Shown piece by piece: positions 6,713 to 10,212 of a DNA stretch of 10,212 bases (position 1 is its first letter; each line of letters begins with the position of its first letter). The notes under the pieces were generated by a model. The model was given only the letters and a program-made list of their open reading frames with translations. It was not told the origin of the DNA and ran no database searches. A program made the position numbers and the translations under genes. Source of the DNA: a virus (taxonomy: Duplodnaviria; Heunggongvirae; Uroviricota; Caudoviricetes); IMG/VR virus record IMGVR_UViG_2698536672_000013; one strand, given 5' to 3'.

Positions 6713-6869
6713 AGCTTCAGCCCCTTGTATCCGTTAAATGATTCGGCAACAATCATCACCCACCACGCGCGTAATCTCACCCCTGCGCCGTTCTCCCGCC
6801 ACGGCGACAACAAAAAGCAGTAACCCCCTCCGCACGCACATGCGACCATGCCGCACAGGGAGGGAGCAG

Positions 6870-7979
6870 ATGACCGACACCACCATGCAATTGCTCAGTC
6901 AGGGCACAGACCCCGTAAAAATGCCGGATTTTGATATTCTCGCGGAGGGTAAAACGCTGTCAGGCGTGGCAGAGCGCCTGATGAGCCTGTCACTGACCGA
7001 CAACCGGGGATTTGACGCGGACCAGCTCACCATCACGCTGGATGATGCGGATGGTCAGTTGCAGCTACCGCCACGGGGCGCGCGCCTGACGGTTCTCATT
7101 GGCTGGAAAGGAGAACCGCTGACAGAAAAAGGCACTTACATTGTTGATGAAATCGCTCACGAAGGACCGCCGGACAGGCTGACTGTTTCAGCCAGAAGCG
7201 CAGATTTTCGGGATGAATTTAACGTTAAACGTGAGGTGTCCTGGCATGATGTGACCGTTGAGCGTGTGGTATCCGCCATCGCTCATCGGTACGGTCTGAA
7301 ACCGCAAATCAGCGAAATGCTGATGGATATCGAAATCGACCACGCCGACCAGACCGAAGAAAGCGACATGTCCTTTCTTACGCGCATGGCGGAAATGCTG
7401 GGCGCAATCACCACGGTAAAAAGCGGTAATCTGTTATTCATTATGCCAGGCGGTGGCGTGAACGCACAGGGCCAGCCGTTGCCCTCGTTCGCCATCACGC
7501 GCGGCAGTGGCGATCGCCATCAGTTCCGCATTGCTGACCGCGAAGCGTATACGGGGGTACGCGCTTACTGGCTTGATCTTAATTACGGGAAAAAGAAAAA
7601 AGTCAGCGTGAAACGCCGTAAACCGCCAAAACCCAAAAAGGAGAAAAGCAGCAGCCGTGAAGGTGATTATATGGAAGGCGCGGAAGGCAATGTGTTTGTG
7701 TTACGCAAGACTTATCAGAACGAGCAGGCAGCAAGACGCGCAGCGGCGGCAAAGTGGCAGCAGCTACAACGCGGAGCCGCATCATTCTCCATCACGCTGG
7801 CATGTGGTCGTGCAGAACTCTACCCCGAAATGCATGGCACGGTAACAGGATTTAAAAGCGAGATTGATAATCAGGACTGGATTATTGCAAAAGCCGAGCA
7901 CACCATCGATAACAGCGGCTTTACCACGCAGCTTGAGCTTGAGGCAAAAATCCCGGAATGGATAGCAGAAACAGAGTGA
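6870..7979 (+). CDS. D: P2 gpD-like tail protein (late gene D)
   Basis: LSLTDNRGFDADQL, SARSADFR, SWHD, FLTRMAE, a Lys/Pro-rich linker (KKKKVSVKRRKPPKPKKEK) and the C-terminal block FSITLACGRAELYPE...GFTTQLELE match the gpD pattern. GGGAGGGAG precedes ATG 6870. The ORF-track start at 6738 is an unlikely upstream extension; ATG 6885 is an alternative start. Confidence 0.85.
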   Translation: MTDTTMQLLSQGTDPVKMPDFDILAEGKTLSGVAERLMSLSLTDNRGFDADQLTITLDDADGQLQLPPRGARLTVLIGWKGEPLTEKGTYIVDEIAHEGPPDRLTVSARSADFRDEFNVKREVSWHDVTVERVVSAIAHRYGLKPQISEMLMDIEIDHADQTEESDMSFLTRMAEMLGAITTVKSGNLLFIMPGGGVNAQGQPLPSFAITRGSGDRHQFRIADREAYTGVRAYWLDLNYGKKKKVSVKRRKPPKPKKEKSSSREGDYMEGAEGNVFVLRKTYQNEQAARRAAAAKWQQLQRGAASFSITLACGRAELYPEMHGTVTGFKSEIDNQDWIIAKAEHTIDNSGFTTQLELEAKIPEWIAETE

Positions 7980-8282: not shown

Positions 8283-8473
8283 CAGGCAGAATTGCCGGAG
8301 TAACAAAAAAGCGATAGATTACGCGCGGGTGCCTTTCGGCTGATGGTCGGAGGGAATACCCGAAGGCCAGATGTGGAAAGGCCCCGGAAAACATTTCTGT
8401 TTAACCGAGGCCCTAACATATCTACCTTAAGCAAGTGATAGGTTAGCGCCTCTCCAACAAAGGAGCAAGCGCT

Positions 8474-8614
8474 ATGTCGCAAAAATCGCTTACGGCCATC
8501 ACGTTCTGCGTGACGGTAATCCTCATCATCTGGATGCTACACGGTTCGCTGTGTGAAATACGGATGAGCTTCTGGGGAGCGGAGTTTGCGGCGTTCTTAC
8601 AGTGTAAGCAGTAA
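8474..8614 (+). CDS. Hok/Gef-family type I toxin (small membrane peptide), 46 aa
   Basis: Translation MSQKSLTAITFCVTVILIIWMLHGSLCEIRMSFWGAEFAAFLQCKQ: an N-terminal hydrophobic helix followed by the SLCE(I/L) and AAFL.C motifs seen in HokA-like peptides. AAGGAG lies 9 nt upstream of the ATG. It is absent from the ORF track only because it is shorter than 60 aa. Confidence 0.65.
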   Translation: MSQKSLTAITFCVTVILIIWMLHGSLCEIRMSFWGAEFAAFLQCKQ

Positions 8615-8708
8615 GGAAACCGCGACGGGGAAGGCAACTTCCCCGTCAATCGGTTGCCAGGGTAAAGGTCGAAAAGGCACCCTATTTCCAGTTGACGTGA
8701 ACAACAAG

Positions 8709-8740
8709 CCCGCAGCGTAAAAACTGCGGGTTTTCTTTTT
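8709..8740 (+). terminator. Rho-independent terminator, probable 3' end of the hok-like transcript
   Basis: A 7 bp GC-rich stem (CCCGCAG / CTGCGGG) with an 8 nt loop, followed by TTTTCTTTTT. Confidence 0.55.
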
Positions 8741-8764
8741 GGTTCCCTCACTCATGAGGACACC

Positions 8765-8804
8765 AAAAAACAAAGCCCACAGCATAGAAGCTGTGGGCTT
8801 TTTG
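8765..8804. terminator. Bidirectional hairpin terminator
   Basis: A perfect 11 bp stem (AAGCCCACAGC / GCTGTGGGCTT) with a 6 nt loop, flanked by an A-run upstream and a T-run downstream. Confidence 0.5.
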
Positions 8805-8877
8805 CATTCAAAGATGGACGTTATATGGACACTTAAAAATAAAATCCATTTATTTTCAAATGATTAAACCTCTACTT

Positions 8878-8898
8878 AAAGCGCCCGCAGGCGCTTTT
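8878..8898. terminator. Hairpin terminator between serS and the upstream region (likely the serS terminator; T-run is stronger on the plus strand)
   Basis: Stem GCGCC / GGCGC with a 4 nt loop, flanked by AAA and TTTTT, about 20 bp beyond the serS stop codon. Confidence 0.5.
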
Positions 8899-8919
8899 TA
8901 GATTCAGAAAAATTGGGTA

Positions 8920-10212
<1,293 letters not shown>

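Follow-up and report, generated by a model that had tools for sequence, protein, structure and literature searches.

A probable hok/sok-type locus without a mok leader frame at the right end of a P2-like prophage

In the hok/sok (parB) locus of plasmid R1, mutation of the mok AUG (to AUA included) or a mok stop placed before hok abolishes toxicity, and disruption of the terminal stem destabilizes the truncated mRNA (PMC9841398). A prophage-borne relative, hokW-sokW of the Stx2 prophage Sp5, has been shown experimentally to act as a toxin-antitoxin system and to play a part in the life cycle of the phage (Takada et al. 2021, PMC8621323); that paper also cites abortive infection against T4 by R1 hok/sok. 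Hok peptides have been catalogued by Escalera-Maurer et al. (bioRxiv 10.1101/2025.08.07.668861), who explicitly placed Mok, Sok, and mRNA structure outside their analysis.

Here, we describe a hok locus within a 10,212-nucleotide stretch of viral DNA (IMG/VR record IMGVR_UViG_2698536672_000013; hereafter, the window), in which a first-pass annotation had proposed a Hok-family toxin locus. The profile match of the peptide and a regulatory RNA layout typical of the family both support that proposal. We consider it very probable that the locus is an intact type I toxin-antitoxin system of the hok/sok type, which a P2-like prophage carries at its right end as accessory cargo. The locus is ordinary except for its missing mok leader frame.

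The Hok peptide and its prophage setting

The two features that define the gene and its surroundings are as follows.

8474..8614, plus strand: hok coding sequence, a 46-aa Hok/Gef toxin belonging to cluster 72 of the Hok catalogue (RefSeq WP_000078920.1)
8878..8897, unstranded: 20-bp prophage att core, identical to the serS terminator hairpin, marking the prophage end

The hok frame encodes the peptide MSQKSLTAITFCVTVILIIWMLHGSLCEIRMSFWGAEFAAFLQCKQ. The 46-codon ORF with a good ribosome binding site that had been noted earlier begins with ATG at 8474, with the Shine-Dalgarno (SD) sequence AAGGAG at 8460-8465, 8 nt upstream. The N-terminal transmembrane helix and the two motifs named in the same annotation were likewise all found: the helix is predicted at residues 4-27 (Kyte-Doolittle 19-residue means of 2.0-2.15), with SLCEI at aa 25-29 and AAFLQC at aa 39-44. 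The profile search that had been suggested as a check returned a match to Pfam HOK_GEF (PF01848) over profile positions 5-42 of 42, with E=3.7e-7 and 30.1 bits against a curated gathering score of 22 bits. The peptide also matched PHROG 251 (E=2.5e-23, 82.8 bits). In an alignment with HokA, HokB, and HokC, residues C12, T14, L26, E28, E37, and A39 were invariant and C27 was common to HokA and HokC; the conserved residues correspond to catalogue positions C16, T18, L30, C31, E32, and E41. Among 68 homologues, those named by their source were all Hok/Gef (one of them HokA), and the full-length ones were nearly all 46 aa. Scores against the NCBIfam HokA equivalog NF007290 (35.8 bits, cutoff 89) and the Hok subfamily NF007279 (23.6 bits, cutoff 73) fell under the curated cutoffs, which sets the subfamily apart from HokA. 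None of the PADLOC defense-system models matched the peptide. An identity with HokW, or as a "MokW-like" protein, was considered and rejected, the only link being the PHROG 251 label "MokW-like host killing."

The median dN/dS of the peptide was ~0.22, falling to 0.11 in the C-terminal half, with purifying selection seen in E. coli, Salmonella, Citrobacter, and Klebsiella and with an invariant C-terminal motif. ORF 8474-8614 is thus a genuine Hok/Gef-family peptide under purifying selection. At only 46 codons, and with several antisense and overlapping ORFs nearby that are comparably long or longer, the frame might be taken for a meaningless chance opening in an intergenic region. That reading has practically no chance of being right: it is already refuted by the Pfam and PHROGs matches and by a dN/dS well below 1, and it also sits badly with conservation across genera and with the family-specific RNA context.

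The locus is already known, in that it is annotated and catalogued and a one-residue variant is reported to be toxic. The ORF had been described as missed by the ORF track, which does not hold for public annotation, where RefSeq/PGAP calls the CDS in every listed genome under the name "Hok/Gef family protein" (WP_000078920.1). The exact peptide is sequence >1628 of File S1, cluster 72, in the Hok catalogue, and the tested set of that study includes the cluster-72 representative 72_1621, one residue apart (V15A), as well as 72_1589, a close variant that is the Stx2-phage allele (bioRxiv 10.1101/2025.08.07.668861). On arabinose induction, 42 of the 45 tested Hok peptides were toxic, the three exceptions coming from other clusters (bioRxiv 10.1101/2025.08.07.668861); as both 72_1621 and 72_1589 belong to the 45 and are absent from the three non-toxic peptides, we count both as toxic. 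The gene itself therefore adds nothing new, being annotated in RefSeq, found in over a quarter of complete E. coli genomes, and catalogued as a peptide. While the protein is identical to that of catalogue cluster 72, the mok-less layout of the present locus is not covered by that paper.

The first-pass annotation had placed the locus in the spacer between the phage late genes and serS. The locus does not lie in a host spacer but within the prophage, 137 bp inside the att core. The prophage is P2-like (P88/Xuanwuvirus-related) and integrated in the serS terminator; K-12 has a single copy of the att core, and the UTI89 prophage has one at each end. The hok locus is situated between ogr and the att core, directly downstream of late genes D and ogr, and is ~95% identical to phages P88, Chuche, and the Xuanwuvirus phage P884B11, with P88 homology stopping just past the terminator of the hok transcript, at ~8742. 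Its value for annotation is as a marker of the accessory module of the P2-like prophage, placed between ogr and the serS-terminator att site. A Salmonella P2-like prophage has relatives in the equivalent position, and in Stx2 phages a 46-aa cluster-72 gene, distinct from hokW, has ~85% DNA identity to the locus. The subfamily is also found on a plasmid beside a relaxase and away from recognizable prophage genes, and related loci are present in 1,544 of 5,426 complete E. coli genomes. A locus search with the peptide alignment gave seven loci, and further loci were added from contigs encoding the peptide. Three of the seven had implausible hosts (Planococcaceae, Vagococcus, and Xanthomonas), probably through contamination.

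The main role of the locus could lie in the phage lytic cycle, with Hok made on induction to aid lysis and release rather than to stabilize the prophage or exclude other phages. Such a role is reported for the prophage-borne hokW-sokW of Sp5 (Takada et al. 2021, PMC8621323), and the present locus stands directly past D and ogr, where no terminator is predicted in the stretch that separates ogr from the hok promoter. However, HokW belongs to a different, 51-aa cluster and to a lambdoid rather than a P2-like phage, a lytic role would make no sense for the subfamily copies beside a relaxase on a plasmid or outside prophage genes, and post-segregational stabilization (the R1 paradigm) and abortive infection are equally possible. 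We hold a primarily lytic role to be rather unlikely.

Predicted sense and antisense RNAs

The predicted sense RNA and its elements, all on the plus strand, are listed first.

8292..8320, plus strand: candidate hok promoter (-35 TTGCCG at 8292-8297, 17-nt spacer, -10 TAGATT at 8315-8320)
8327..8740, plus strand: putative full-length hok mRNA, ~414 nt, both ends predicted
8327..8341, plus strand: tac (translational activator), GGGUGCCUUUCGGCU, pairing with 8667-8682 in the full-length minimum free energy (MFE) structure
8373..8386, plus strand: ucb-like box, GUGGAAAGGCCCCG, pairing with the GAGG region (full-length) or with tac (3′-truncated)
8407..8452, plus strand: Sok-target hairpin (mok-SD/dcb equivalent), -16.2 kcal/mol folded alone
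8445..8473, plus strand: anti-SD hairpin over the hok SD (AAGGAG, 8460-8465), -12.1 kcal/mol
8579..8594, plus strand: downstream coding segment, GCGGAGUUUGCGGCGU (encoding AEFAA), pairing with the hok start region 8474-8489
8624..8647, plus strand: post-stop GC-rich hairpin, the stem that likely protects the processed mRNA at its 3′ end
8667..8682, plus strand: fbi (fold-back inhibition), GGUCGAAAAGGCACCC, pairing with tac
8706..8740, plus strand: intrinsic terminator of the hok transcript (10-bp stem and downstream T run)

The candidate hok promoter matches 8 of 12 consensus positions; its -10 aligns with the hokC -10 TATAAT and is kept as TAGATT or TAGAAT in most of 16 relatives. A promoter consensus scan detected neither the hok nor the sok promoter, and for hok a score under the scan cutoff is what would be expected if, as we infer, hok promoters are weak. 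Both promoters are accordingly put forward as candidates, from positional homology and conservation. The 5′ end of the mRNA was predicted from promoter spacing and from the start of an Rfam match at 8327, and the 3′ end from the terminator, which is kept in relatives with compensatory changes. The originally annotated interval, 8283-8740, agrees well with the putative promoter (8292-8320) plus the predicted transcript (~8327-8740).

Modeling indicates that the predicted ~414-nt sense RNA carries the fold conserved in the hok family. Its full-length MFE was -179 kcal/mol (z=-7.48 vs shuffles). The consensus structure was 98% paired against ~40% for slid controls and held 13 compensatory pairs, a value reached by 0 of 500 shuffles; this covariation comes from 15 related loci and is largely that of one split, between E. 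coli-type and Salmonella-type clades. Rfam gave nothing in the window at gathering thresholds. With permissive thresholds only, RF01794 matched full length at 8327-8484 (E=1.4e-9), its 47.9 bits comparing with a gathering score of 59. None of five other cluster-72 loci scanned with RF01794 reached the gathering score, and K-12 hokC gave 118 bits. An orientation check on K-12 showed that this "sok" model describes the hok leader in sense orientation and not Sok itself.

Individual helices were conserved to differing extents. The tac/fbi pairing (helix 1) comprises 12 pairs, three of them compensatory, and is 98% paired, while in 3′-truncated folds tac pairs with 8373-8386 (ucb) in an alternative helix of 11 pairs, 96% paired; columns 11 and 12 of the alignment, which fall in tac, show covariation with fbi and with ucb alike. 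In the full-length fold, the ucb/GAGG helix (helix 4) is 100% paired with one compensatory pair. Pairing of helix 6, between the start region and the downstream coding segment, reaches 99.5% over 14 pairs, and the post-stop hairpin (helix 11), analogous to the R1 terminal stem, has compensatory double changes in five of its nine pairs. The Sok-target hairpin is 96% paired across the 15 loci, but its sequence is almost invariant, so this pairing says little. The outer stem of the anti-SD hairpin (helix 5) varies only by G-U wobbles, which are valid on the sense strand alone.

The GGAG of the hok SD is paired in every predicted form, and thermodynamic models keep the SD paired in full-length and truncated RNAs, with or without Sok. 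A purely thermodynamic switch that releases the SD was consequently not supported as a ground state, the SD staying paired whether the RNA was modeled free, truncated, or blocked by Sok; the switch proposed below is likewise not the predicted ground state, since the SD remains paired in all modeled forms. The open truncated conformation lies just 2-3 kcal/mol above the MFE.

On the opposite strand, two features could be placed.

8370..8433, minus strand: putative Sok-like antisense gene, ~60 nt, ends approximate, from alignment to the annotated K-12 sokC
8440..8468, minus strand: candidate sok promoter (-35 TTGCTC at 8468..8463, 17-nt spacer, -10 TAACCT at 8445..8440)

It had been stated that a Sok-like RNA could not be pinpointed by eye, which is true of inspection by eye only: homology to K-12 hokC/sokC suggests a minus-strand Sok-like antisense gene reading from about 8433 to 8370. 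The predicted RNA would have a single-stranded 5′ tail, a hairpin with a GAAA loop, and a U-rich tail, and the minus-strand fold of the region has -28.9 kcal/mol (z=-4.3). Across relatives, the sok -10 reads TAACCT or TATCCT and the -35 reads TTGCTC, TTGCCT, or TTTACT, with a spacing that is always 17 nt. The candidate promoter lies at what we take to be the position of the R1 sok promoter.

The missing mok frame and Hok translation

One further feature occupies the place of the mok start.

8407..8420, plus strand: relic mok initiation region (conserved GAGG at 8407-8410, AUA at 8418-8420, in-frame stop TGA at 8436)

In alignment with K-12 hokC, the mokC ATG falls over the window's ATA at 8418-8420. 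The earlier report of no ATG-initiated mok-like frame was right and extends to GTG and TTG: in the window, none of the frames opened by these codons extends into the SD or the start of hok, while the same frame test, as a positive control, recovers mokC and mokB in K-12. Widening the test to CTG, ATT, ATA, and ATC starts also gave no mok-like frame in the window. Across 16 subfamily loci, a start codon at the mok AUG position is absent from all 16, and there is no conserved leader ORF, near-cognate starts included. The one exception is E. albertii, where an ATG at -103 opens a 79-codon overlapping frame. By these comparisons, mok is missing throughout the subfamily and was not overlooked in the earlier inspection. 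A 19-codon ORF at 8371-8430 (GAAGG SD) was rejected as a mok substitute: it stops 30 nt upstream of the hok SD, it has another frame and another length in the Stx2 allele, and Salmonella-type leaders lack its ATG. A literature search for mok-less hok loci returned nothing relevant, and the literature searched does not discuss the point.

With no mok frame in the locus or the subfamily, Hok must use its own SD. The locus could then be translationally silent, as the equivalent mok mutations in R1 abolish toxicity. On this account, loss of mok ended Hok synthesis, and the locus is decaying or is kept only as hitch-hiking prophage DNA or for the Sok-like RNA that it supplies. The R1 loss-of-function mutations (PMC9841398), the hok SD predicted to be paired in all forms, and the many chromosomal hok loci that are inactive (Fozo 2010) speak for it. 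It is nevertheless improbable, given purifying selection on the peptide across four genera (dN/dS 0.22) with an invariant C-terminal motif and a 46-codon frame intact in 16 of 16 sampled loci, something a silent gene would not retain. The absence of mok is moreover old and subfamily-wide rather than a recent lesion, the remaining regulatory elements are all kept with compensatory changes, and the locus is retained in active phages and on plasmids. As the peptide is under purifying selection (dN/dS ~0.22), Hok translation in the present subfamily is probably mok-independent.

For an active, mok-less hok/sok system, we propose the following course, most of which is modeled on the R1 paradigm. 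As in R1, the full-length mRNA would be stable and neither translatable nor open to Sok binding. Slow 3′ trimming to the post-stop hairpin would strip fbi, upon which tac would switch to ucb and the Sok-target hairpin would form. A short, unstable minus-strand antisense RNA (~8433 to 8370) would bind the processed mRNA, with RNase III degrading the duplex. Once the antisense supply ends, through prophage loss, induction, or transcription shut-off, Hok would be made, enter the inner membrane, and kill or lyse the cell, as in R1. The departure from R1 would be that Hok is translated from its own SD. Our best guess is that Sok represses in two ways: by RNase III-mediated decay, and by capturing the 5′ arm of the target hairpin, 8407-8417, so that the freed 3′ arm, 8442-8452, rebuilds the -12 kcal/mol anti-SD hairpin.

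We tentatively suggest, as a possibility less likely to be right than wrong, that cluster 72 (in P2-like and Stx2 prophages, some plasmids, and ~28% of complete E. coli genomes) is a natural mok-less regulatory variant of hok/sok. Hok would be translated from its own hairpin-sequestered SD, and Sok, binding 30-90 nt upstream, would act beyond RNase III decay by releasing the dcb arm, so that the anti-SD hairpin is rebuilt, or by occupying the conserved relic mok SD (GAGG 8407-8410), which would serve as a ribosome standby site. The wider interest of the locus is in regulation only, the large and widely transferred subfamily keeping tac, fbi, ucb, dcb, and the mok Shine-Dalgarno with no mok frame. 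If the loci are active, they would provide a natural experiment on Sok control of Hok without translational coupling, as well as a simpler system for studies of the hok mRNA switch. If the mok-less reading is true, a large natural branch of the hok family would do without mok coupling, which is essential in R1.

Comparison with known systems

As in R1 hok/sok, the toxin is a small membrane peptide with an LCE motif, and the mRNA is predicted to be stable and folded, its ends joined by tac/fbi pairing, with a ucb box, a target hairpin (GAGG/dcb), and a 3′ stem that would protect it. The candidate antisense promoter overlaps the hok SD region, again as in R1. The locus differs in that the mok leader ORF, essential in R1, is absent; in that the peptide has 46 residues and a C-terminal QCKQ ending, where the R1 peptide has 52; and in being carried on a prophage rather than a plasmid, with a sub-threshold RF01794 leader score.

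Among K-12 loci, HokA is the nearest named relative of the peptide (43% identity and the best NCBIfam match). The hokC leader aligns position for position, through the -10, the 5′ GCGGGUGC, GCCCCG, and CCGAGGCC. The present locus has no counterpart of the AUGs of mokC (-57) and mokB (-58). The K-12 loci lie on the chromosome, and of the three compared, two adjoin insertion sequences, IS186 for hokC and IS150 for hokA. The hokW-sokW system of Stx2 prophage Sp5 resembles the present one in being a hok/sok system carried by a prophage. Unlike the present peptide, HokW is 51 aa and starts MKQQKAM, and its leader begins GGGUGCUUGAGGC; this length and differing leader assign it to a different cluster.

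In tisB/istR-1, an example of ribosome standby control, translation of the toxin is prevented by an antisense RNA that binds far upstream of a structured ribosome binding site. That system has no sequence relationship to the present locus, and the analogy is one of mechanism only. A similar geometry appears to recur here, with a predicted Sok site at 8370-8433 and the hok SD at 8460, and by this analogy one may speculate, purely as a hypothesis, that the present locus has a ribosome standby site of its own.

The Hok peptide and its relatives

The first-pass annotation had described a 46-codon ORF with a ribosome-binding site, an N-terminal hydrophobic segment and the SLCEI and AAFLQC motifs, and each of these elements was found:

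8474-8614, + strand: hok ORF, ATG start, 46 aa, product MSQKSLTAITFCVTVILIIWMLHGSLCEIRMSFWGAEFAAFLQCKQ

The Shine-Dalgarno sequence (SD) AAGGAG lies at 8460-8465, 8 nt before the ATG, the hydrophobic stretch covers residues 4-27 (19-residue Kyte-Doolittle means 2.0-2.15), and the peptide carries both motifs. The profile search proposed in that annotation was run and returned Pfam HOK_GEF (PF01848) at 30.1 bits, vs a gathering score of 22 (E=3.7e-7); PHROG 251 matched at 82.8 bits. The peptide missed the NCBIfam HokA equivalog cutoff (35.8 vs 89) and also scored under the cutoff of the NCBIfam Hok subfamily model. Identity is 43% to K-12 HokA and 22-24% to HokB and HokC, and alignment with these three shows that the family Cys/Thr/Leu-Cys-Glu/Glu positions are retained. 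Searching the database gave 68 homologues, spread over E. coli, Shigella, Salmonella and Klebsiella. Where the source gives a name it is Hok/Gef (HokA in one case), and nearly all full-length members have 46 aa. Residues that never vary are G24, C27, E28, A36, E37, A39, A40, L42, Q43, C44 and K45. Median dN/dS over 14 gap-free coding sequences was 0.22 (0.11 in the C-terminal half), a rough figure because synonymous sites are also constrained by overlapping RNA structure. The label "MokW-like" is misleading here, as HokW, characterised from prophage Sp5, is another peptide, 51 aa long.

This feature has been annotated and catalogued before, and functionally sampled as well. In RefSeq the CDS is named "Hok/Gef family protein" (UTI89: WP_000078920.1), an annotation present at 29 of 30 sampled rows for related loci. 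The whole 8283-8920 segment adjoins serS in 292 complete E. coli genomes, and a related locus occurs in 1544 of 5426. A 2025-26 preprint catalogue of Hok diversity includes the exact peptide (sequence >1628) and places it in cluster 72, one of the high-abundance clusters at 60% identity; two representatives were cloned, 72_1621 (one residue off the window peptide) and 72_1589 (the Stx2-phage allele), and 42 of the 45 tested Hok peptides were toxic, the three exceptions all lying outside cluster 72 (10.1101/2025.08.07.668861). The Hok-toxin observation is confirmed, and its interpretation in the first-pass annotation is supported.

Prophages are enriched for hok (10.1101/2025.08.07.668861). The locus may serve to stabilise the prophage, to aid lysis in the manner of HokW, or to act in abortive infection; no PADLOC model matches the peptide.

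Prophage context

Upstream of hok lie the P2-type genes D and ogr. The locus had been placed in the spacer between the phage late genes and serS; the att core puts the hok unit inside the prophage, as phage cargo and not in a host spacer:

8878-8897: att core, 20-bp AAAGCGCCTGCGGGCGCTTT, the serS intrinsic terminator hairpin

K-12 has one copy of this sequence (L004 ~2250-2270); in UTI89 (L022 ~10470-10495) a copy bounds the prophage at each end, towards hok-serS and towards int-dmsA, so integration regenerates the serS terminator. The hok unit ends 137 bp inside the prophage. Between its terminator and the att core is a 135-bp phage arm (8743-8877) not common to P88; a strong hairpin with a T run in this arm (8801..8772, - strand) could stop serS read-through into the prophage.

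Hok loci ~95% identical to this one are found in the P2-like phages P88 and Chuche and in Xuanwuvirus phage P884B11, and a ~85% identical copy in Stx2-converting phages. P88 matches the hok unit through the terminator and then diverges, which fits a different att/int module. Other relatives occupy the same position as the window hok, at the ogr-proximal end of a Salmonella P2-like prophage, or lie beside lambdoid tail-fibre genes, adjoining a plasmid relaxase, or in tandem pairs. The Salmonella cluster-72 pairs are ~490 bp apart (L020 1501-1641 and 1991-2131; L021 1501-1641 and 1995-2135), each copy having its own leader and terminator, and their peptides differ by 2 residues (L020) or ~9 (L021). 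In a Salmonella P2-like prophage, hok is directly followed by the enterobacterial sRNA STnc540 (L014 1795-1992, - strand; Rfam RF02082, 171.6 bits), next to genes for a Bac_DNA_binding (HU/IHF-family) protein and the phenylalanyl-tRNA synthetase beta subunit; this region presumably marks another integration site. The enterobacterial hok peptide (74-100% identity) also appears in genome records of unrelated taxa, L006 (Planococcaceae MAG), L007 (Vagococcus sp.) and L010 (Xanthomonas pisi), most likely as contaminating E. coli or Salmonella contigs. For tail protein D, the longest ORF (6738-7979, +) has an arginine- and proline-rich N-terminal extension of 45 residues, unlikely to be genuine, and translation probably starts at the internal MTDTTMQLL; UTI89 has a shorter VgrG/Pvc8-like CDS and a pseudogene fragment there.

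The predicted hok mRNA and a putative Sok-like antisense RNA

The elements of a hok mRNA are the 5' activator (tac), its 3' fold-back partner (fbi), the upstream box (ucb) and the target-hairpin arm (dcb). Features assigned to the window locus are as follows.

Candidate RNA features of the hok unit
8292-8297 and 8315-8320, + strand: candidate weak hok promoter, TTGCCG, 17-nt spacer, TAGATT; aligns with the hokC promoter
near G8327, + strand: predicted hok mRNA 5' end; aligns with the hokC 5' end
8327-8341 with 8667-8682, + strand: tac/fbi pairing in the full-length fold
+ strand: ucb/GAGG helix, in the RNAalifold consensus, as is tac/fbi
8445-8473, + strand: anti-SD hairpin, RNAalifold consensus
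8474-8489 (hok start) with 8579-8594, + strand: long-range helix, RNAalifold consensus
8624-8647, + strand: post-stop hairpin, RNAalifold consensus
8706-8740, + strand: predicted terminator closing the hok unit
~8433 to ~8370, - strand: putative Sok-like gene, from leader alignment with K-12 hokC, where sokC is annotated
8468..8463 and 8445..8440, - strand: candidate sok promoter, TTGCTC, 17-nt spacer, TAACCT

The hok promoter and 5' end are conserved among relatives. At the sok promoter, relatives have TAACCT or TATCCT as -10 and TTGCTC, TTGCCT or TTTACT as -35, at constant spacing. Neither promoter passed a strict consensus scan. Rfam RF01794 gave a full-length match at 8327-8484 (47.9 bits, E=1.4e-9), under its gathering score of 59; in the K-12 control it scored 118 bits on the hokC strand (L005 502-654, -). 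This "sok antitoxin" family models the sense strand of hok mRNA, running from the leader 5' end up to the hok start. In K-12, sokC is annotated on the strand opposite to the match, so RF01794 strand calls should not be taken as the Sok gene. We infer a Sok-like RNA gene and promoter in the window from alignment; the RNA is predicted to comprise a single-stranded 5' tail, a GAAA-loop hairpin and a U-rich tail (-28.9 kcal/mol, z=-4.3).

In modelling, the predicted hok mRNA took up the family fold and the alternative pairings that go with it. The 8326-8740 RNA folded at -179 kcal/mol (z=-7.5). In the RNAalifold consensus over 15 cluster-72 loci, 98% of structure cells were paired, vs ~40% with partners slid 1-3 columns. 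Thirteen consensus pairs showed compensatory double changes, and none of 500 column shuffles reached the observed covariation, much of which is a single split between E. coli-type and Salmonella-type clades. An alternative open fold, with tac/ucb and a target hairpin at 8407-8452, was 96% paired, and in tac, columns 11 and 12 show covariation with both ucb and fbi. Gultyaev and colleagues reportedly described coupled covariation of this kind for hok mRNAs. One Salmonella cluster-72 locus in a lambdoid tail-fibre context (L016 ~1300-1500) has an intact hok ORF and fbi and a 5' end without the GGGTGCC tac; its leader may be rearranged or inactivated.

By analogy with the plasmid R1 hok/sok paradigm, full-length hok RNA would be inert until 3' trimming to the post-stop hairpin freed tac, which would then pair with ucb as the target hairpin formed. 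Sok would bind this processed RNA, the duplex being destroyed by RNase III, and Hok would be made once Sok was lost.

Absence of the mok leader frame

No ATG-initiated mok, the leader ORF overlapping hok, had been seen at first pass, and this held up: no ATG, GTG or TTG frame in the window reads into the hok SD or start, nor does any when CTG, ATT, ATA and ATC are added. An AUA (8418-8420) aligns with the mokC AUG and is followed by an in-frame TGA at 8436. As a positive control, our script recovered mokC (ATG at -57) and mokB (ATG at -58), with GAGG before each; GAGG is invariant in the cluster-72 loci too (8407-8410 in the window). None of 16 cluster-72 loci has a start codon at the mokC AUG position, and no overlapping leader frame is conserved among them; just one, E. 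albertii, has a 79-codon frame, which opens with an ATG at -103. E. coli-type leaders contain a 19-codon ORF (8371-8430, +; ATG with GAAGG SD); it is cut to 15 codons in the Stx2 allele, whereas in E. albertii (L009) it reaches 79 codons and overlaps hok. Salmonella-type leaders have no such ATG, and the ORF is probably incidental.

How Sok might act here can be sketched from the folds: pairing with 8370-8433 would release 8442-8452, and the anti-SD hairpin (-12.1 kcal/mol) would be rebuilt. The open truncated conformation was just 2-3 kcal/mol over the MFE. The thermodynamic model kept the hok SD paired in all states, so we put this step forward as a hypothesis.

Mok and Sok were expressly outside the analysis of the Hok catalogue (10.1101/2025.08.07.668861), and our literature search found no paper discussing a missing mok in such hok loci; its absence across the whole subfamily is the sole remaining novelty. 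In R1, function is lost when the mok start codon is mutated, as in G118A (AUG to AUA), or when mok is cut short by a stop before hok (PMC9841398). The cluster-72 subfamily is therefore either silent for want of mok, as those lesions would suggest, or translates hok without it. Silence sits poorly with three observations: the peptide is under purifying selection, all the other elements are conserved, and active phages and plasmids have kept the locus. For these reasons we favour hok translation in cluster 72 that, unlike that of R1, is independent of mok.
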